A stretch of 24,000 nucleotides of DNA from Faecalibaculum rodentium (GTDB taxonomy: Bacteria; Bacillota_I; Bacilli_A; Erysipelotrichales; Erysipelotrichaceae): contig NZ_CP011391.1 in assembly GCF_001564455.1 (NCBI RefSeq), positions 2,091,391 through 2,115,390 of the forward strand, given 5' to 3'. This document shows positions 5,859 to 14,612 of the stretch, piece after piece. The number at the start of each line of letters is the position of its first letter. Positions within the stretch are counted from its first letter, which is position 1. The notes below the pieces were generated by a model, which made no database searches, was not told the origin of the DNA, and was given only the letters and a program-made list of their open reading frames with translations. Position numbers and translations under genes: made by a program.

Positions 5859-6954
5859 CTAAGGCACTAAAGGCTTGAATATCCGGATTTTTCTTAGTAG
5901 ATTGATTAATAAGATAGAAATAAAAATAATTAACCAAGGACCAATGAGTCGCCACCAAATTGACGTTTGACTGATGTCCATGAAATGCAATAAACCTAGA
6001 AGAACTAGCTGATGAAGTAAATAGATACCAAAAGTATATGGCCTGAACCATTCAGAAAATCTAATAATTGCTAATTGAATTCTATTTTTTCTATTTTGGC
6101 ACTTGTTATAGATCTGTCGAATCAGTATAAAAACAGCAATAGACTGAAGATAGCAAGGGAGATTGTAATAGCCTTTGAAAGTCTCTACAATGTGATTCGC
6201 ATTTATTGATAAGTAGTAAGTTGGAATTAGTTGCATAATAAACCCTATTGTACCCAATATATAAAGTACAATTCTTGTTCTTTTTCTTATGCTGTAATTA
6301 CCAATTAAATATCCTATTATAAAATATAGATAATAGTTTGCAGATACAGGCATCAACTGAGATACAGAGATTTCAGAAAAAATGTATTACAAATAAATAC
6401 AGCTACAACATTCAGCAAGAATCCCAAAACTGCAAGATATTCAAAAACATGCTTCCTGGATGCATTGGATATATTGGAGAATAACGGAACTGTTATGCAG
6501 ATAGTAAAATAAGGAATGAAAAACCAATATACACTCACTAAGTTTCCATTAATTAGACCATCAATTATTACAGGGAAAGTAATTTCTAAGAGAGGAAACC
6601 ATTCTAATACTATACTTTGATAATAAACGCCTAATACACTCCAAAAAAAATAAGGAATTAATACTTTCATTGCCCGATTCCTCAAGAATCTCTTTGTTCC
6701 ATTCCTTTCTATACTTGGAATCAAAGTTATACCGGAAATCATAAAAAAATTGGAACAGCCCAATAGAGAACTGTTTCAATTATATTTGCTGTCATCCAAT
6801 ATCGAGCTTTCGGATCAAAATCCCAGAAGCATGTATTCACATGCAGATATACAACAGCTATAGCAGCTGCTACACTTAAAAAATCCACAGTCTTATCAAA
6901 ATTTGTGAGGTGTTGGTTCAGCATCTTATCCTTATAATATTCCATAAAAATCAC
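5859..6954 (-). pseudogene. Acyltransferase family 3 (O-acyl/acetyltransferase) gene split into three frames
   Basis: Fragments 6954..6739, 6763..6353 and 6356..5859 (71+136+165 aa) together make one typical 10-TM acyltransferase_3 protein of about 370 aa. Adding one T at the A7/T7 run (6743..6749) restores the conserved AVPIFFMISGITL. Adding one T at the A6/T6 run (6377..6382) joins the last two pieces as ..NTFFSEISVSQLMPVSANYY... Confidence 0.7.
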
Positions 6955-8797: not shown

Positions 8798-11692
8798 TCA
8801 CCAACTCTCCACCACCATCTCCAGCAGCTCCGCAGCTGCCACTTTATCCTTCACCCGAATCAGATGGTTCCAGGCATCCTCCGGACCTAACAGGTTGATG
8901 CCGCCATCCCACACCAGTTCCCTGTCGATCACCGCAAACGGATCAACCGGATCATCCAGCTCCCGGACGGAAAAACCTGCTTCTTTCAACCGGCGGATCG
9001 CTGCATCCTTGGTCCCTTCCCAGCCATCATCGGCAGTAGTGAAAATGACAACGTCCACTTCATTCCTGCCTTCCATAGCCTGAAGCACTTTCTCTGCCCT
9101 GGAAAGAGTGATGGCAGGACTGGAAATTACGACTTCCTTTCTGGACTCCCGGAGATCCTGGAGGAAGGCATCCAGATAGTTGTCCAGGTCGAATATCGCA
9201 TTGACGGTCTGGGATACCGCAGGATCTGTTGTCTGCAGCTGCCAGGCCGCCTTTTTGTATGTCTTCAGACGCTTTCGATACATCCCCTGGAATACCGGAA
9301 TCCGCCGGTCAATGTAGTCATATACCTGCACTGTCTTCTTTCCGGGGTAGTCCCTGTTCAGCCGGCCGAGGAACTGCAGAAGCAGCCCTTCAAAGGCAAT
9401 GGGTGATACAAGAAACAGGGTATCGAGCCGGGGATAGCTGAATCCTTCTCCGATTTTCTGGCCTGTGGCAATGATGAGAACTGATTCGTTGTCCGGAACT
9501 CTCTTCAGCTGACTCAGCTGTTCCCTGTTCTCTTTCTCAGAGTTGTCTCCATAAACCAGGAACAGATGATCTGCACTTCCTTCCAGGTGTCTGGCCAGCG
9601 TGGCTGCATGTGATTTCAGCCTTACGAATATGGCACAGGTATGACCTTCTGCAAGGGCCTGACGGACATCACCTGCAATCAGTTCGTTTCTCACAGGATC
9701 CTGTGCAATGTATTCATACAGCTCGTAGATGGCTGGCTTTTCTTCCCGCAGGCAGAGGCTGCGGGTAAACCGCGGGATAAGGAGCCTCTGCAGGTTCTGG
9801 CTCTTCGCCTTATCCATGGCACTGTAGGTGTGCCGAATATCGCCAATGAACATGGTGATAAGAGGATCCAGCTTGTCCGCCCGTTTCGGTGTGGCTGTCA
9901 TGCCGTAGAGATACGCAGGAGAAATCCGGTCCAGGATCTTTCGAAAGGTCGGAGATGCTGCATGGTGGCATTCATCCACGATGACCATTCCATAGCGGTC
10001 AGGAATGGAATCCATGTTTCCCAGTGTCTGTGCCATGGCGATATCCACAAGGCCTGTCATGGTGTTTTTGGATCCCTTCAGGACACCGATGTGGCTTTTT
10101 CGCCTTCTGGTTTTCCCAGCCTTTGTCCGATACTCCGGAAGGGGTTCATCAAATTTCAAAAACTCCTCCAGCTCTTGCTGCCACTGTTCCAGAAGTGCGG
10201 TCTTTTCAATGAGAATCAGCGTATTGACCTTCCTGTGCGCTATCAGGCTGGCTGCCACAACGGTTTTTCCGAAGGAAGTGGCGGCAGAGAGAATTCCATA
10301 GTCGTATTTCAGCAGTTCTTCCTGCGCTGCCTGCTGTTCCTGTCGGAGCGAACCCTGGAATTCAACGCGAAGCCATGCTCCCTTTTGCCGTTTGTCTCTG
10401 ATCCGATAGTCGATGCGGCTGCTTTCCAGCCGGTGTTTCAGCGTATCCCGTATTCCACGGGGCAGCCGGATATAGCCGTCCACATCGCTGCCGATATACA
10501 GGATGCGGGGTGTGTTCCAGTTGGAATATCCAAAGCGTGTGTTCTCATACCAGGCGGGATTTGCCATGGCTGCCAGATTCCGAATCTGATTCTGCAGTCT
10601 GGGATGGAGTGTGAGGGCATCTACATAGATGCCATCGGCGAGGATGATGGTCAGAGTTCCATAGACATCTTCGGGATGGAATTCACTGTTCTGCTTCCAG
10701 GGATCCGGGCGATACTGGCTAGTCATAGCCAGTCTTCCCGTCTCAACCGCAAGTTCCTGGCCCCAGGTTTGGATATACTGCTCCATTTGTTCTCTGGTGA
10801 GCTTCTGACACTCTTTCATGGCCTGCCACTGGTCGGGGATGGCATTCCAGTGTTCATCCACAAACGCTGTGTTGCCTTCTGTCAGCGAAGCACCGTGGAG
10901 GGGCAGTGCGATGAGACTGCCGAGATCCTCTGTCTGGTCCTGTGCGGGAAACATCCGGTCGTAACACTGGTAGGACCTGAGAGGAACCAGCTGGCTGCCT
11001 TTGTTCAGCAGCAGCATACCAAACTGCCTGGCTGTGGAAGCTTTGACAGGTTCCTTGAAAAAGATCCAGACATGAGATCCCTTTCCGGAACGGGATCTTT
11101 CCACAAGGCAGTTGATTCCCAGCTGGGTGCAGATCATCCGCAGGGTTTCAGCTTCCTTCCTCGTCTGGGCTGGATCAGAGGCTTCGCTGTGAGCGTCAAA
11201 GTCAAAAACCAGAAACCGGCAGGTCCCATCAGGATGCAGTGGATAGATTCCAACAGGATTTGAGGACCCCAGCAGATGCCGGAGCAGGATTTTAGGGTTG
11301 ATTGCCTCCCAGCCCCTGTGCAGACACTTGCTGCAGGGAGATTTTGGATTCGTGTGTTTAGGACAGACGCCGGCATTCCAGCGATACAGACACTGGGGAT
11401 ACCATCCTCCGTTTTTGCCTCGTTTGGCGTACACATCCATGCGGCCCCAGAACATAGAAAAGAAGAATCGGACCATGTATTCGGTGATCCATGGAAACTG
11501 GATCCGGGCTCCCTGATCCGGATCTGTATCAGGGGCTGATGGCATGGGCACTGGCAAGGATATATCATGAGACTCAAGCTGTTTTCTTAATTGTCTGTTT
11601 TCCTGTTCGAGACTTCGATATTTCTTTGCGAGTTCAATCAATGCCTGTTGAAGATATTCCATGGCTTTATGATAACAAGTTTGTGTCGTCAT
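8798..11692 (-). CDS. AEP (archaeo-eukaryotic primase)-like domain fused to an SF2 DExH helicase, with a C-terminal PLD-like-looking domain; conflict/defence-type protein
   Basis: N-terminal coiled coil (LEQENRQLRKQLE). Cys/His cluster CLYRWNAGVCPKHTNPKSPCSKCLH. AEP motifs FLVFDFDAH (DxD), SGKGSHVWIFF (sGxGxH) and LIALPLHG. Helicase motifs TSFGKTV (I), VIVDECHH (II), GMTATPKR (III) and QFLGRLNR (VI). C-terminal ISSPAIT..VVIFTT..FAVIDRELVWDGGINLLG. The start is ambiguous: track 11731 is TTG, and the ATGs at 11692 and 11662 both lack an SD. Confidence 0.85.
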   Translation of the reverse strand: MTTQTCYHKAMEYLQQALIELAKKYRSLEQENRQLRKQLESHDISLPVPMPSAPDTDPDQGARIQFPWITEYMVRFFFSMFWGRMDVYAKRGKNGGWYPQCLYRWNAGVCPKHTNPKSPCSKCLHRGWEAINPKILLRHLLGSSNPVGIYPLHPDGTCRFLVFDFDAHSEASDPAQTRKEAETLRMICTQLGINCLVERSRSGKGSHVWIFFKEPVKASTARQFGMLLLNKGSQLVPLRSYQCYDRMFPAQDQTEDLGSLIALPLHGASLTEGNTAFVDEHWNAIPDQWQAMKECQKLTREQMEQYIQTWGQELAVETGRLAMTSQYRPDPWKQNSEFHPEDVYGTLTIILADGIYVDALTLHPRLQNQIRNLAAMANPAWYENTRFGYSNWNTPRILYIGSDVDGYIRLPRGIRDTLKHRLESSRIDYRIRDKRQKGAWLRVEFQGSLRQEQQAAQEELLKYDYGILSAATSFGKTVVAASLIAHRKVNTLILIEKTALLEQWQQELEEFLKFDEPLPEYRTKAGKTRRRKSHIGVLKGSKNTMTGLVDIAMAQTLGNMDSIPDRYGMVIVDECHHAASPTFRKILDRISPAYLYGMTATPKRADKLDPLITMFIGDIRHTYSAMDKAKSQNLQRLLIPRFTRSLCLREEKPAIYELYEYIAQDPVRNELIAGDVRQALAEGHTCAIFVRLKSHAATLARHLEGSADHLFLVYGDNSEKENREQLSQLKRVPDNESVLIIATGQKIGEGFSYPRLDTLFLVSPIAFEGLLLQFLGRLNRDYPGKKTVQVYDYIDRRIPVFQGMYRKRLKTYKKAAWQLQTTDPAVSQTVNAIFDLDNYLDAFLQDLRESRKEVVISSPAITLSRAEKVLQAMEGRNEVDVVIFTTADDGWEGTKDAAIRRLKEAGFSVRELDDPVDPFAVIDRELVWDGGINLLGPEDAWNHLIRVKDKVAAAELLEMVVESW

Positions 11693-11762
11693 AATGCAAG
11701 AAAGCCAAACCCTATGCCCTGTCCGGAGCAAAATGCCGGTTCTTTCTCAGGTGTCTGAATCT

Positions 11763-11771
11763 CTGCTATAC
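11763..11771 (+). promoter_or_regulatory. Candidate extended -10 element (TGcTATACT) for the small acidic ORF
   Basis: TGCTATACT occurs at 11763..11771 with a weak -35 (TTTCTC, 11743..11748). It overlaps the start of a tandem ACTCAGGAAG/ACTCAGGAAA pair (11769..11788). Motif match only. Confidence 0.3.
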
Positions 11772-11892
11772 TCAGGAAGACTCAGGAAAAATTGCTGCAA
11801 CAGTAACGTGTGGATGCCTGTCGCCTGCTTTGGATAAAGCGGGTGAATCATGGCGTATCCCTGCTTCTGTGCAGAGCAGGAAAGAACAGTCC

Positions 11893-12123
11893 ATGATTTT
11901 AGATGATTTGAACTTTGACGATATTGATCTGGATGTTTTGTTTGGGCGTGATTATGATGGCAAGGAATTTGACATGACGGAATATGTCGGTGTATGGAAT
12001 GGATATGATGTGTATCTCGGGTATGCAGATGGAGAAGATCATGTCCTGCTGGTCAAGGGGAAACGGGCGTGGTATCCCAACAGTATGGACCTCGATGAGA
12101 TCAAATACATCTTTGATCTCTGA
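11893..12123 (+). CDS. Small highly acidic hypothetical protein (76 aa)
   Basis: ATG at 11893 is preceded by AGGAAAG. MILDDLNFDDIDLDVLFGRDYDGKEFDMTEYVGVWNGYDVYLGYADGEDHVLLVKGKRAWYPNSMDLDEIKYIFDL has 19 D/E against 6 K/R. It is followed by the hairpin terminator at 12210..12253. The track start at 11830 is TTG. No family was recognised. Confidence 0.45.
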   Translation: MILDDLNFDDIDLDVLFGRDYDGKEFDMTEYVGVWNGYDVYLGYADGEDHVLLVKGKRAWYPNSMDLDEIKYIFDL

Positions 12124-12209
12124 GACTGACTGATTGACTGTCACAAGACGGGCGAGGTCGGTCGTGTCTTTCCCAGGACTGGTTTTGCTATTTTTCCTAC
12201 AGCGATTTT

Positions 12210-12253
12210 AAAAAGCCTGGCGCTTTCACCACCGAAGCACCAGGCTTGTTTTT
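12210..12253. terminator. Bidirectional rho-independent terminator-like hairpin (repeat copy R1)
   Basis: AAAAAGCCTGGCGCTT-TCACCACCG-AAGCACCAGGCTTGTTTTT forms a 12-bp stem (one C-A mismatch). An A-run precedes it and a T-run follows, so it can terminate the + strand small ORF and the - strand TAC operon. Confidence 0.6.
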
Positions 12254-12506
12254 ATGAATCATTCAATTCACCTGCTTAAGGAAGTTCAAAATGAGATTCT
12301 GGCGGCAACAGAGATAGCTGTTTCAATCACAGTCATCAAAGTGTCAGGTTACCAAGCCTTCCATTTCATGATAAGAAGCTGCTATAAGAAATCCAAAAGC
12401 TGGAAACTGCTCGATTTATTGTTGGCAAACGACCAGTAGTTCGGCATATGGCCGGAGTCCACCCCATTGCGAATGAGCAGATTTCATTTCAATCGTTTCA
12501 GAAGTG

Positions 12507-12923
12507 TCAGGAATCCGATTTTCGTTCGAGCACAATATCATGATCCAGATCCAGACGACTGCAGTCAATGATTGGGAGCTTCACTTCCGATATTGTGTAG
12601 GATGTAATAGTCTGGACTGCCTCACGTACGTAAGGGAATGCAACAGCCATGAATCTTTTAATATGAGAGTTGATAGCATCAATATCATCTTCTTCAAAAT
12701 CCCGAATCAGTCCCTCATCCTGCAGGGAAAAAATACTGGTAAATTCCATTGGAACTTCCTTGTCATGCTTTCCGCACAGCAAAATCTGGATCCCAACCGA
12801 GAGAAGGCGGTTTTTCCTTCTGTAATCATAACCGGTCACCCCTATTACAATTTCTTCGTAAGGATGTACTTCAGAGAGTTCATATTCAAGCTTTTCAAGC
12901 TTAAAATCCAAATAAGTAAACAT
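12507..12923 (-). CDS. SecB-like chaperone (third gene of a toxin-antitoxin-chaperone cassette)
   Basis: 138 aa. AFPYVREAVQTITSYTISEVKLPIID matches the conserved SecB C-terminal core as I recall it (E. coli SecB [28 protein letters not shown]; M. tuberculosis Rv1957 LYPYIREYV). The N-terminal beta-strand-like LDFKLEKLEYEL and LLSVGIQILLCG resemble the SecB fold pattern. AGGGGGG RBS; the ATG lies 9 nt after the antitoxin TAG. Confidence 0.65.
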   Translation of the reverse strand: MFTYLDFKLEKLEYELSEVHPYEEIVIGVTGYDYRRKNRLLSVGIQILLCGKHDKEVPMEFTSIFSLQDEGLIRDFEEDDIDAINSHIKRFMAVAFPYVREAVQTITSYTISEVKLPIIDCSRLDLDHDIVLERKSDS

Positions 12924-12932
12924 ATTCCCCCC

Positions 12933-13403
12933 CTACGCCTGCAGAAACACAGCTTGATTCTTAGCTCTGTCCACTGTCTCGACAGGTACGTATACATCAA
13001 TCGCAGATGGTCTGCTTTGCCAGCTGTTTTCTTCAGATTCCCATTTCCCGATATCATAACAGTCAAGGGCATAGGCTCGAATCTTGTGACATTCTCTCGC
13101 TTCATCTTTTCGCTTAGGTTCAGTAACGGCGCTCTTCCTGAACTGGTACAACTCGCTCACCAGCTCGGGGTGTCGATCCAGCAGGTAAAGAGTCCTGCTG
13201 GCGGCTCCTTTGATTGGGTTGGCCCCCTGTTCCCATTTTTCAATGGTTTTTTCGCTTAGCCCCAGCATCTTTGCCATCATTCTCTGTGAAAGTCCCAGTT
13301 TCTGCCGAAGGGCTTTTGCAAAACTATTGGTCGTAATCTCTTCTGTGTTTGTAAACTCATTTTTACAAACAGGCATCTTTTTCAAAGCTTCTATATCAAA
13401 CAT
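12933..13403 (-). CDS. XRE/HigA-type helix-turn-helix antitoxin with a roughly 70-aa C-terminal extension
   Basis: 156 aa. HTH core FAKALRQKLGLSQRMMAKMLGLSEKTIEKWEQGANPIKGAASRTLYLLDRHPELV. This is followed by an aromatic/charged tail (..YALDCYDIGKWESEENSWQSRPSAIDVYVPVE..). Strong RBS AGAGGAGAG upstream of the ATG at 13403. Confidence 0.8.
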   Translation of the reverse strand: MFDIEALKKMPVCKNEFTNTEEITTNSFAKALRQKLGLSQRMMAKMLGLSEKTIEKWEQGANPIKGAASRTLYLLDRHPELVSELYQFRKSAVTEPKRKDEARECHKIRAYALDCYDIGKWESEENSWQSRPSAIDVYVPVETVDRAKNQAVFLQA

Positions 13404-13421
13404 ATTCTCTCCTCTAAATAT

Positions 13422-13442
13422 CTTCAGGTCTTTGACCTGAAG
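13422..13442. promoter_or_regulatory. Perfect 9-bp inverted repeat between toxin and antitoxin genes
   Basis: CTTCAGGTC-TTT-GACCTGAAG, read directly. It ends 18 nt upstream of the antitoxin ATG, just 5' of its SD on the mRNA. Confidence 0.4.
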
Positions 13443-13495
13443 CAGTCAATCCACATCTTTCACGCCAGGGTTCCACTATTTTTTTCCGAAATCGG

Positions 13496-13921
13496 TCATT
13501 CTTTTTCACTGGCTTCCCGGACTTTCTCCAGGTTGCTGACCAATTTACGAAGCTGATTCTTCTCGTTGGATGTCAAATCAGTCTTCGGCTTCTTTCCTGC
13601 ATGTTTATGATAAATATGACAGATAAATGAAGTCTCGCAAAGAGCTGCAACCAGAATGATCCTGTATCCTCCACGTTTGCCACTATTGCGCTTTGGATCT
13701 TTGCAGCGCATTTTATAAACAGCCAGATCCGAATATTTCTCTGACTGAATCAATCTGCTTCCAGAACGATCATTCTCGAGATCATCCGCTACATCCTGAA
13801 GTATCTGATTGTATCCTGACTGCCCAAGTCCCGTTCTCTTCAGATCTTTCTCCAGGTCAAACCCATAATCCTTCAGTTCCCGCAGGAGATCAGGACTGTC
13901 AAAAGTATCAGTCAGATTCAT
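13496..13921 (-). CDS. RelE/ParE-superfamily toxin, HigB-2-like
   Basis: 141 aa. The core AVYKMRCKDPKRNSGKRGGYRIILVA...ICHIYHKHAGKKPKTDLTSNEKNQLRKLV resembles the ..KGKGKRGGSRIIYY...IYGKNEMSDL..QRKQL pattern I recall for Vibrio HigB-2-type toxins. It is the first gene of the cassette. GGGGATGG RBS. Confidence 0.7.
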   Translation of the reverse strand: MNLTDTFDSPDLLRELKDYGFDLEKDLKRTGLGQSGYNQILQDVADDLENDRSGSRLIQSEKYSDLAVYKMRCKDPKRNSGKRGGYRIILVAALCETSFICHIYHKHAGKKPKTDLTSNEKNQLRKLVSNLEKVREASEKE

Positions 13922-13937
13922 AATCCATCCCCAATCG

Positions 13938-13968
13938 CCCTATTTAGTAGGGTATTCAAATCATACCA
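13938..13968 (-). promoter_or_regulatory. Candidate TAC promoter (extended -10 TGGTATGAT) with adjacent small inverted repeat
   Basis: On the minus strand, TGGTATGAT (13968..13960) is followed immediately by CCCTA-N5-TAGGG (13952..13938), about 17 nt upstream of the toxin ATG. Motif-level evidence only, and the -35 is weak. Confidence 0.35.
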
Positions 13969-14010
13969 TATTCTGCCTTTGAAAAAGATATATATTACCG
14001 TTATGGATTC

Positions 14011-14055
14011 AAAAAGCCTAGCGCTTTACTCCTGAAGCACCAGGCTCATTTTCTG
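14011..14055 (-). terminator. Rho-independent terminator-like hairpin downstream of the FMN reductase (repeat copy R2)
   Basis: AAAAAGCCTAGCGCTT-TACTCCTG-AAGCACCAGGCT; on the minus strand the stem is followed by TTTTTG. It shares the blocks AAAAAGCCT, GCGCTTT and GAAGCACCAGGCT with R1 at 12210..12253. Confidence 0.55.
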
Positions 14056-14060
14056 TTCAT

Positions 14061-14612
14061 TTATCCCAGTAGTGTATCGATCTGCCCTTCGAGCATTTCC
14101 TTCACACCCGGTGTCTTCATGACATCATCGCTGCCCCAGCTTTCCGGAGACAGGGCAATGCCTTCAGAACTGATCACCGTCATGCCCATGAACTTGCAAA
14201 GCAGAGACAGGTTTTTCCTTACGCCAAAGCCTGCAGCCCTGCCACCGGCGGTTGTCAGCAGCACTTTTCGGCCATAGACCGCTGTATCCGATTTATCCGC
14301 CCCGGGCTTCAGCCCCCGGGACAGCCAGTCCAGCAGGTTCTTTTCTCCGCCGGGAATCTGCCCGTTATATTCCGGGGAAAAGATCCAGATCACATTGCAG
14401 CCCATGACCTCATCCCGGACTTTCTGCACAGCTTCCGGTGTCGGGAACTCGTCATCCTGACTGAAAAACGGCACATCGAGCCACTCGATCATTTCCACCT
14501 TCTGCCCCTTTTCCTCCAGCATGGTTCTCGCAAGACTGGCCAGCTGTCTGTTGAAGCTGTTCTTTCTCCTGCTGCCCACCAGCAGCCCGATTGTATCGGT
14601 TTCATTGTTCAT
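14061..14612 (-). CDS. NAD(P)H-dependent FMN reductase family oxidoreductase
   Basis: The ATG at 14612 is preceded by AGGAGGAA; the track start at 14741 adds 43 unlikely residues. IGLLVGSRRKNSFNRQLA and IWIFSPEYNGQIPGGEKNLLDWLSR are typical of the FMN_red family. Confidence 0.8.
   Translation of the reverse strand: MNNETDTIGLLVGSRRKNSFNRQLASLARTMLEEKGQKVEMIEWLDVPFFSQDDEFPTPEAVQKVRDEVMGCNVIWIFSPEYNGQIPGGEKNLLDWLSRGLKPGADKSDTAVYGRKVLLTTAGGRAAGFGVRKNLSLLCKFMGMTVISSEGIALSPESWGSDDVMKTPGVKEMLEGQIDTLLG

Follow-up and report, generated by a model that had tools for sequence, protein, structure and literature searches.

A toxin-antitoxin-chaperone cassette between two copies of one terminator hairpin in Faecalibaculum rodentium points to a probable insertion with long target duplication

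Faecalibaculum rodentium, a bacterium of the mouse gut, has a ~1.8-kb cassette encoding a predicted toxin, antitoxin and SecB-like chaperone; the cassette lies between two directly repeated copies of the same terminator hairpin, here termed R1 and R2. The reading we favor, to which we assign a probability of roughly 0.65, is that the cassette was inserted at the hairpin and duplicated it, i.e. an insertion that makes a long duplication of its target. A sequence-only reading of this DNA had already proposed as much, and single-hairpin empty sites in related metagenome contigs (L129/L130 and L131–L134) lend the proposal support. The window, meaning the whole stretch of 24,000 nucleotides analyzed, contains the following features around the site (coordinates, strand, description).

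8798..11731, minus strand: primase-helicase conflict gene of the AEP-TOTE type (Pfam AEP-TOTE, E = 7.5e-75; ResIII, E = 2.6e-22)
11893..12123, plus strand: acidic ORF of 76 aa, with a full-length, 75%-identical homolog in L129/L130
12210..12253, no strand assigned: R1, the distal hairpin (stem 12214–12225 with 12235–12246, loop 12226–12234)
12254..12506, no strand assigned: 253 bp to which no gene is assigned, making up the 3′ part of the insert (fold z = −0.84)
12507..12923, minus strand: SecB-like chaperone gene as judged from a structural model, 138 aa (PADLOC PD-T4-9_C, E = 1.9e-4)
12933..13403, minus strand: antitoxin gene, 156 aa, with an HTH/MqsA-like DNA-binding domain at residues 19–85
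13496..13921, minus strand: toxin gene, 141 aa, first of the operon, with a weak match to PF06296 RelE
13938..13965, minus strand: putative cassette control region, a palindrome plus −10 box read from the sequence
14011..14055, minus strand: R2, the proximal hairpin (stem 14015–14026 with 14035–14046, loop 14027–14034, then U5)
14061..14612, minus strand: NADPH-dependent FMN reductase gene, 183 aa (Pfam FMN_red, E = 6.9e-27)

R1 and R2 are direct repeats on the same strand with a start-to-start spacing of 1800–1801 bp, and they have the blocks AAAAAGCCT, GCGCTTT and GAAGCACCAGGCT in common, all of which agrees with the sequence-only reading. Over a repeat length of ~45–49 bp, in excess of 30 bp, the two copies are ~78% identical, with 13 nt as the longest identical run. 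They differ mainly in the loop, as had been claimed: 4/9 loop positions are changed vs 1/24 in the stem, where the 5′ arm is without change and the single substitution in the 3′ arm converts a G-C into a G-U pair. A likeness reaching 20–25 nt past the hairpin is visible by eye and suggestive; flank tests for a duplication of that extent were not significant (p = 0.08 or worse).

The motif common to R1 and R2 is matched exactly twice in the window and in none of 100 dinucleotide shuffles, and R1 and R2 are also its only two exact copies in the entire genome (2,542,486 bp). Neither blastn-short nor an nhmmer profile built from eight family members retrieved a third R1/R2-like copy from the 2.54-Mb genome, the profile scoring R1 and R2 at E values of about 1e-10 and the next best genome match at 0.14. 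Scanning 596 Gb of reference genomes yielded 102 single matches, which fell in unrelated phyla, and no related locus was among them. A metagenome scan returned at least 120 loci; among the matches listed, the reductase, cassette and small-ORF genes are missing throughout, and no profile score exceeds 33 bits, vs at least 40 bits for true family members. Whether the motif belongs to a REP-like family or is unique to this site had been posed as a question to be settled in the genome and its relatives, and the counts, two copies here and 0/300 in other genomes of the same family, rule out a dispersed repeat of the REP or BIME type.

The same counts bear on the possibility that no duplication ever took place and that R1 and R2 are independent terminators, alike by convergence or chance. 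Rho-independent terminators do share a general form, a GC-rich stem flanked by A- and T-tracts, but here the likeness extends to 23/24 stem positions together with shared A5 and T5 tracts, the common motif has no match in 100 shuffles, and no further terminator in the genome resembles the pair. In addition, the empty alleles described below hold exactly one copy between R1's left side and R2's right side, and convergence is effectively refuted.

Folding with RNAfold is consistent with a role of both hairpins in transcription termination. In the minus-strand orientation, R1 folds at −24.1 kcal/mol (z = −4.2) and R2 at −20.8 kcal/mol (z = −3.9), with UUUUU directly after each; in the plus-strand orientation, R1 folds at −22.3 kcal/mol and is followed by a T-run, R2 being weaker (−16.9 kcal/mol). 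Both stems are GC-rich, 12–13 bp long and arranged as in Rho-independent terminators (stem-loop plus U-tract); a simple terminator scan overlooked them because its loop and stem rules exclude them. Among ten members of the hairpin family, 96.7% of stem cells pair, vs 29–56% when the partners are slid; one pair is altered in both partners (U-A to A-U), seven pairs in one partner only. The covariation score of the stem was reached by 100 of 500 shuffles, a weak statistic given the very short helix. The minus-strand folds and the U5 tracts agree with the earlier assignment of R2 to the end of the reductase gene and of R1 to the end of the cassette operon. R2, whose stem begins 14 nt beyond the reductase stop codon (14061–14063), is predicted to terminate the FMN-reductase gene and would shield the cassette promoter. 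Going beyond the earlier reading, R1 may be a bidirectional terminator that serves the minus-strand cassette operon and also the 76-aa ORF convergent with it on the plus strand.

The cassette itself consists of three ORFs on one strand, separated by gaps of 92 and 9 nt, and its previous labeling as a toxin-antitoxin-chaperone system is upheld by domain matches and a SecB-fold chaperone model. The toxin matches PF06296 RelE with E = 1.1e-4 and 22.8 bits, i.e. under the 27-bit curated cut-off, and has no sequence match in the PDB and none in NCBIfam. Its homologs at 87%, 71% and 59% identity (BLASTP) always reside inside a three-gene toxin-antitoxin-chaperone unit, and this gene order is kept in L013, L014 and L017. 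The antitoxin matches Pfam MqsA_antitoxin (E = 1.8e-8), HTH_3 (E = 2.1e-8) and, below cut-off, TIGR03830 (E = 4.6e-13); its C-terminal tail of ~70 aa (residues 86–156) is a candidate chaperone-addiction segment. The third gene, on the strength of its predicted structure, encodes a SecB-like chaperone: while searches of the PDB and Pfam with the sequence alone gave no match, an AlphaFold2 (AF2) model built from the family alignment reached a pLDDT of 93.2 (the single-sequence model was poor, pLDDT 50), and its top PDB matches in Foldseek were 5MTW (Rv1957) and 1QYN (E. coli SecB), at TM 0.57–0.60 and probability 1.0. Rv1957 (5MTW) is a SecB-like chaperone that belongs to a toxin-antitoxin-chaperone system (PMC5105189, PMC6377645). 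The chaperone family is narrow and diverged: 1.84 billion proteins include 40 representative clusters of it at E <= 0.001, and 4/42 sequences of its alignment match Pfam SecB.

Upstream of the toxin gene, the palindrome CCCTATTTAGTAGGG at 13938–13952 is a likely operator for the antitoxin, and in L012, L013, L014 and L017 the corresponding position upstream of that gene is occupied by a palindrome of the form CCCTAT..ATAGGG. A putative −10 box, TATGAT, lies on the minus strand at 13960–13965, and the TGG before it would supply the TGn of an extended −10. Positions 13938–13965 may combine the operator and promoter of the cassette.

Consistent with the earlier remark that the intervening DNA is less GC-rich, GC content across 12200–14000 is 41–46%, compared with 53–57% in the reductase gene and 54% in the genome. 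The stretch between R1 and the chaperone gene has no Pfam, NCBIfam or Rfam match and no unusual fold. Gene finders predict in it a plus-strand ORF of 61 aa (12254–12439) that is without a family match, and part of the stretch is common to the 87%-identical cassette in L013. That it might be a decayed 3′ end of the reductase gene was ruled out, as blastn, tblastx and shuffled local alignment all gave results at chance level. Searches with Pfam, PADLOC and NCBIfam found no transposase or integrase in the ~1.8-kb insert, which holds only the three cassette genes, and comparison of the cassette with plasmid and phage collections gave no match. A cassette homolog at 71–80% amino acid identity sits in an unrelated context in L014, without the R1/R2 hairpin. 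The cargo looks foreign and mobile from its composition and distribution. Against our preferred reading, we found no target duplication flanking the related L013 and L014 cassettes.

Precise empty sites occur in the related metagenome contigs, where the small ORF, one hairpin and the FMN-reductase gene succeed one another; an empty site of just this kind, with one hairpin directly after the reductase gene, is what the sequence-only reading had anticipated. In L129/L130, the homolog of the 76-aa ORF stands directly before the single hairpin, which lies in the 133 bp that separate this ORF from the reductase gene. The left flank of the single-hairpin sites is homologous to the left flank of R1 and their right flank to the right flank of R2. 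On the reading we favor, the FMN-reductase gene would be the host gene that had its terminator copied. The 76-aa ORF, which is convergent with the reductase gene in the empty-site genomes and divergent from the AEP-TOTE gene on its other side, was probably the second owner of the original shared terminator; it is frameshifted in L131–L134 and truncated in L008. The reference set contains one further genome of the genus, which is without the reductase gene and offers no comparison at this site.

With respect to the direction of the event, we infer an insertion and not a deletion, with support from the cargo's foreign GC content, from its mobility and from the empty sites present in two lineages. 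The two-hairpin state could be the older one, with the empty sites derived from it. The empty-allele hairpins and their flanks belong to diverged haplotypes, and none of these alleles looks like a recent R1 x R2 product. The sequence-only reading had further suggested that the repeats permit precise excision by homologous recombination, and this part was not supported as worded: at 78% identity and with a longest run of 13 nt, R1 and R2 are a poor RecA-type substrate, which makes excision by R1 x R2 recombination unlikely today.

Insertion with target duplication would have started from a minus-strand FMN-reductase gene and, convergent with it, a small acidic plus-strand ORF, the two sharing one bidirectional Rho-independent terminator. 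A foreign toxin/antitoxin/SecB-like chaperone operon, equipped with its own promoter and operator and no recombinase, would then have entered at the hairpin, copying it, a stretch of ~45–50 bp, to both sides of the cassette. The molecular route may have been illegitimate or microhomology-mediated joining of the incoming DNA at a replication-stalling hairpin, at two offset points on sister copies. Once in place, R2 would stop reductase transcripts before they reach the autoregulated cassette promoter, and R1 would stop both the cassette operon and the convergent small ORF; we propose that the stems have stayed intact while the loops drifted because each hairpin is now needed. Later, ordinary recombination between homologous flanking genes may have carried the occupied allele from strain to strain, and the identity between strains is indeed mosaic.

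The same hairpin is duplicated around other cargo in sister lineages, an observation that extends the earlier reading and the reason why we consider the hairpin a recurrent entry point. At the same site, a sister species has a distant cassette homolog (55–57% amino acid identity, vs 93–95% in core genes) bracketed by its own hairpin pair. In L017, two hairpins (86% identical over 42 nt) enclose that contig's own cassette homolog, and in L131, two hairpins (88% over 41 nt) enclose a Panacea-type module plus the small ORF. Homology between these two contigs ends and starts again exactly at the hairpins. Within one genome, the hairpin copies have stem and loop variants in common that are specific to the lineage, with 73–79% identity within vs a mean of 66% between genomes.

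These data may also be read as one ancient duplication in a common Faecalibaculum ancestor followed by cargo swapping and gene conversion, with the cargo (two distant cassette versions or the Panacea-type module) exchanged through flanks or hairpins by homologous recombination and with single-hairpin alleles arising as losses via recombination between the copies. We regard this scenario as unlikely, although several observations speak for it. Homology between L017 and L131 breaks off and restarts exactly at the inner edges of flank-orthologous hairpins, the cargo between them being different; derived stem and loop states are common to both hairpins of a genome, a likeness that could stem from gene conversion instead of independent duplications; and all sister-species contigs read (24/24) are occupied. 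The region is also strongly mosaic, e.g. L012 is 96–100% identical to the window per 100-bp bin over 11600–14050, vs 83% in the reductase gene and 93% in the primase-helicase gene. However, 45-bp hairpins at 73–88% identity are poor substrates for conversion or crossover, and no empty allele displays a hybrid R1/R2 pattern. The proximal and distal copies are moreover equally far from the single copy of L129 (78–79%, all-column core identity), an equality no less compatible with duplication from that lineage's own hairpin. An ancient duplication would, besides, still require an initial duplicating insertion, and it differs from the reading we prefer only in the number of events.

A further alternative takes the hairpin to be a site used by a trans-acting recombinase, comparable to attC or to the dif sites of Xer-dependent modules, with cassettes being excised as circles and re-inserted at the hairpin by an enzyme whose gene lies elsewhere in the genome. 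The 12–13-bp arms around a 6–9-nt spacer do resemble the core sites of tyrosine recombinases, one hairpin family bounds different cargo modules in different genomes, and the hairpins of one genome are alike, as are the attC sites of one array. Yet the integron core motifs R′/R″ (GTTRRRY/RYYYAAC) are absent from R1 and R2, strand exchange by a tyrosine recombinase would be blocked since the spacers differ at 4/9 positions, and the ORFs scanned between 320 and 19093 included no recombinase. The presence of only two sites genome-wide, the lack of any in 300 other genomes of the family and an A-tract/T-tract layout that is the layout of a terminator likewise argue against such a site, and we hold this explanation to be very improbable.

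A broader notion, which we consider a long shot, is that the terminator hairpin constitutes a structure-specific docking site, either independent of recombinases or served in trans, that repeatedly captures and exchanges addiction and defense modules, a "terminator slot". If true, such a slot would be a functional counterpart of integron attC arrays, stalling of replication or cleavage, induced by the palindrome, would steer foreign DNA to gene ends, and each new module would automatically receive terminators on both sides. As in integron cassettes and attC arrays, imperfect palindromes stand between the cargo units here and resemble one another within a genome; unlike integrons, the locus has no attC core motifs, no integron integrase was found among the scanned ORFs, the genome holds two sites, and the palindrome has a terminator layout.

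The closest precedent for insertion with target duplication comes from restriction-modification units, for which insertion with long target duplication is described by Nobusato et al. 2000, as related in the account of Furuta, Abe and Kobayashi 2010 (PMC2853133). The cases collected there are recognized by repeats of >30 bp, an insert of <20 kb without other mobile elements, and alignment of both repeats to one empty-site copy, often spanning a gene end (PMC2853133). The present locus has ~45–49-bp repeats around a 1.8-kb insert, no mobility gene and single-copy empty sites. As in the restriction-modification insertions, a small selfish or defense unit without a recombinase is flanked by genome-unique direct repeats, both of which align to one empty-site copy, and the repeat lies at the end of a neighboring gene. 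In contrast to those insertions, the cargo here is a toxin-antitoxin-chaperone operon, the target is a complete putative bidirectional terminator of which both copies seem to have been kept in use, and the same target is duplicated around other cargo in sister lineages. The repeats also differ in age: at 78% identity, as opposed to 94–100% in the published cases, they imply an old event whose junction details are blurred.

With regard to its cargo, the cassette resembles HigB1-HigA1-Rv1957 of M. tuberculosis (PMC5105189, PMC6377645) and CmdTAC/PD-T4-9 (PMC11618068, PMC9519451) in the order toxin, antitoxin, chaperone. It further resembles toxin-antitoxin-chaperone systems in that the chaperone model matches Rv1957 and SecB and in that an antitoxin HTH domain is joined to a long C-terminal tail. 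It departs from the known systems in the sub-threshold match of its toxin to the RelE family and in a chaperone without a direct Pfam SecB match that belongs to a narrow and diverged family.

In the minimal mobile elements of Neisseria, variable cassettes lie between conserved flanking genes and are exchanged by homologous recombination; the concept is not known to involve duplication of the target. The locus shares with these elements alternative cargo in the same flanks, mosaic identity via flank homology and the lack of mobility genes.

Taken as a whole, the locus appears to be a clear case, though one with precedents, of an insertion that copied its target without a recombinase. The phenomenon as such is already published and the finding is incremental, the mechanism being the one we propose above. 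How toxin-antitoxin and small defense modules enter chromosomes without a mobility gene is poorly understood, and the site, in a commensal of the mouse gut that can be cultivated, is a clean example from nature in which occupied and empty alleles both occur. After the insertion, both neighbors and the incoming operon would still end at a proper terminator, a possible reason why such insertions are tolerated and retained. The recurrence of the bracket suggests that target-duplicating insertion at terminators could be a general route for addiction modules, beyond restriction-modification systems.

A search for a duplicated bracket around the neighboring AAA_21 plus 201-aa cassette of L129 and L131 gave only a weak hairpin-like match in L131, at 10234–10251 (nhmmer E = 4).

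A three-gene toxin-antitoxin-chaperone cassette lies between two hairpins, R1 (distal) and R2 (proximal), with a small acidic ORF beyond the former and an FMN reductase gene beyond the latter (window coordinates):

11893-12123, plus strand: small acidic ORF, 76 aa, converging on R1
12210-12253: R1 hairpin, direct copy of R2
12507-12923, minus strand: predicted SecB-like chaperone, 138 aa (PADLOC, family alignment, AF2 model)
12933-13403, minus strand: antitoxin, 156 aa, HTH / MqsA-like
13496-13921, minus strand: toxin candidate, 141 aa, sub-threshold RelE match
14011-14055: R2 hairpin, same orientation as R1
14061-14612, minus strand: FMN reductase (Pfam FMN_red, E = 7e-27)

The hairpins start 1800-1801 bp apart. 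The motif that a sequence-only reading had proposed for them matched twice in the window, in none of 100 shuffles, and only twice in the whole genome (one contig, 2,542,486 bp, GC 54.0%), confirming R1 and R2 as direct copies of one hairpin. Neither blastn-short nor an nhmmer profile drawn from eight members of the family found a third copy in the genome; the profile returned R1 and R2 with E about 1e-10, and its next best match, at C1:207568-207606 (E = 0.14), is the weakest candidate for a further relative. With two copies only in the genome, a dispersed family of REP elements is rejected. Between R1 and R2, one of 24 stem positions (G-C to G-U) and four of nine loop positions are changed.

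Folding predictions are in line with terminators. On the minus strand, both form a 12-13-bp stem followed by UUUUU (R1, -24.1 kcal/mol; R2, -20.8 kcal/mol; z about -4 for each). On the plus strand, R1 again folds well (-22.3 kcal/mol) next to a T-run, and R2 more weakly (-16.9 kcal/mol), its minus-strand G-U pairs turning into C-A mismatches. R1 is thus a predicted bidirectional terminator that could serve the small ORF as well. Across ten members of the family, 96.7% of stem cells are paired, compared with 29-56% when partners are slid; one pair is changed on both sides and seven on one side only. The covariation shuffle control was unimpressive, 100 of 500 shuffles reaching the observed score, as can be expected when the helix is short and the sequences are related.

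If the cassette had been inserted at a terminator and duplicated it, as the sequence-only reading suggested, alleles with a single hairpin directly after the reductase gene should exist. Exact-protein look-ups retrieved contigs from this lineage and its sisters, two of them (L129, L130) reached via a small-ORF homologue, with the following layouts:

L006, L007, L009, L012: two hairpins as in the window
L129, L130: primase-helicase gene, full-length small ORF (75% identity), a 133-bp stretch containing one hairpin, reductase
L131-L134: frameshifted small ORF, one hairpin, reductase
L008: L129-type empty site in which an additional deletion has taken away the final 19 codons of the small ORF

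On its left, the sequence next to the single hairpin aligns with the left flank of R1, i.e. the 3′ UTR of the small ORF, and on its right with the right flank of R2, the reductase stop region. The predicted empty site was thus found, and its flanks support the reading of an insertion that would have duplicated the terminator. Among 23 contigs read with the window's reductase protein, 20 are occupied and three are of the L008 type; the cassette is absent from all 24 contigs with the frameshifted small ORF and from all three with an L129-type small ORF. The small ORF itself, which adjoins the primase-helicase gene, keeps its 75% identity in a sister lineage; being frameshifted in L131-L134 (L131:7001-7174) and truncated in L008 (L008:8541-8840), where it reads through the hairpin, it is dispensable in some strains. 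The empty-site haplotypes also carry, between FMN-reductase and transaldolase-family genes, a two-gene cassette absent from the window (L129:4736-6662, L131:8196-10122), encoding a 448-aa AAA_21/SMC_N ATPase and a 201-aa protein; at its far end in L131 there is only a weak hairpin-like element (10234-10251).

Restriction-modification units have been described to insert with long target duplication and without any other mobile element, leaving direct repeats of >30 bp on either side; these repeats occur nowhere else in the genome, correspond to a single copy where the site is empty, and often cover the end of a gene (PMC2853133). Our locus resembles this class in every structural respect bar two: its cargo is a toxin-antitoxin-chaperone cassette rather than a restriction-modification unit, and R1 and R2 lack the high repeat identity of the published cases. 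The event thus belongs to a kind already described, here with this cargo and, as target, a whole predicted bidirectional terminator. Integron attC sites and Xer sites are rejected: R1 and R2 lack the attC core motifs, their spacers differ, the genome has only two copies, and a scan of ORFs between 320 and 19093 turned up no recombinase.

Precise excision by homologous recombination through the repeats, likewise proposed from the sequence, found no support. The longest uninterrupted run shared by R1 and R2 is 13 bases, and none of the empty alleles compared could plausibly have arisen recently from R1 x R2 recombination, which makes such excision unlikely at present.

Of added interest, sister lineages carry the same hairpin in duplicate around other cargo. 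In the sister species represented by L017, core proteins are 93-95% identical to those of the window, and the cassette homologue in the same place is only 55-57% identical. It is flanked by two direct copies of its own hairpin variant (86% identical over 42 nt), both with a compensatory stem change (CCTGG/CCAGG to CCAGG/CCTGG). The L014 cassette sits in an unrelated context, yet is closer to the window's (71-80% aa) than that of L017, so the window and L017-type cassettes are not simple vertical orthologues. In the same-species haplotype L131-L134, two direct hairpins (L131:5554-5595 and L131:7277-7319, with 88% identity across 41 nt) enclose the frameshifted small ORF together with a 201-aa gene and a gene with a SocA/Panacea domain; between L017 and L131, homology stops at the proximal hairpin and picks up precisely at the distal one, with unrelated cargo in between. 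Hairpins are 73-79% identical within genomes and 59-74% (mean 66%) between them, and R1 and R2 are equally far from the single L129 hairpin (78% and 79%, all-column core identity). Each lineage may have duplicated its own hairpin independently; gene conversion keeping the hairpins of one genome alike would account for this pattern equally well. Contig L013 (1891-5948; cassette 87% identical) keeps an R2-type hairpin and lacks the distal copy; after ~200 nt of shared non-coding DNA follow DUF2513 and HTH_23/HTH_38 (transposase-like) genes, a layout that suggests a later rearrangement.

Occupied and empty alleles spread by homologous recombination in the flanks. In L012, a block of ~11600-14050 comprising small ORF, R1, cassette and R2 is 96-100% identical to the window per 100-bp bin; outside it, the reductase gene is 83% and the primase-helicase gene 93% identical, with FMN-reductase bins (14100-14400) up to 41% different next to a cassette that is 100% identical. 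The L008 reductase gene is 99.8% identical to the window's, and identity collapses at its stop codon. The region is hence a recombination mosaic, in which no fewer than four classes of reductase allele circulate, with nucleotide identities of 77-92%.

Within the cassette, the 138-aa protein gave a weak PADLOC match (PD-T4-9_C). An exhaustive profile search yielded 40 representative clusters, from which a 42-sequence alignment was built; four of the 42 match Pfam SecB. The AF2 model on this alignment (pLDDT 93.2) best matches M. tuberculosis Rv1957 (5MTW) and E. coli SecB (1QYN) in the PDB (TM 0.57-0.60). By predicted fold the protein is a SecB-like chaperone, so the original toxin-antitoxin-chaperone label holds, with the toxin family a candidate and dependence on the chaperone putative. 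The toxin start codon is separated from a TATGAT -10 box, extended by an upstream TGG that supplies the TGn, by the palindrome CCCTATTTAGTAGGG (13938-13952). A CCCTAT..ATAGGG counterpart occupies the equivalent position in all homologous cassettes inspected (L012, L013, L014, L017), and the element is likely an antitoxin operator. Elsewhere in the window, 5859-6763 carries two overlapping ORFs (136 and 165 aa) that together correspond to an acyltransferase-3 gene intact in L008 (361 aa); the window copy, in a stretch of the polysaccharide locus with only 31-35% GC, is probably a pseudogene created by a frameshift.
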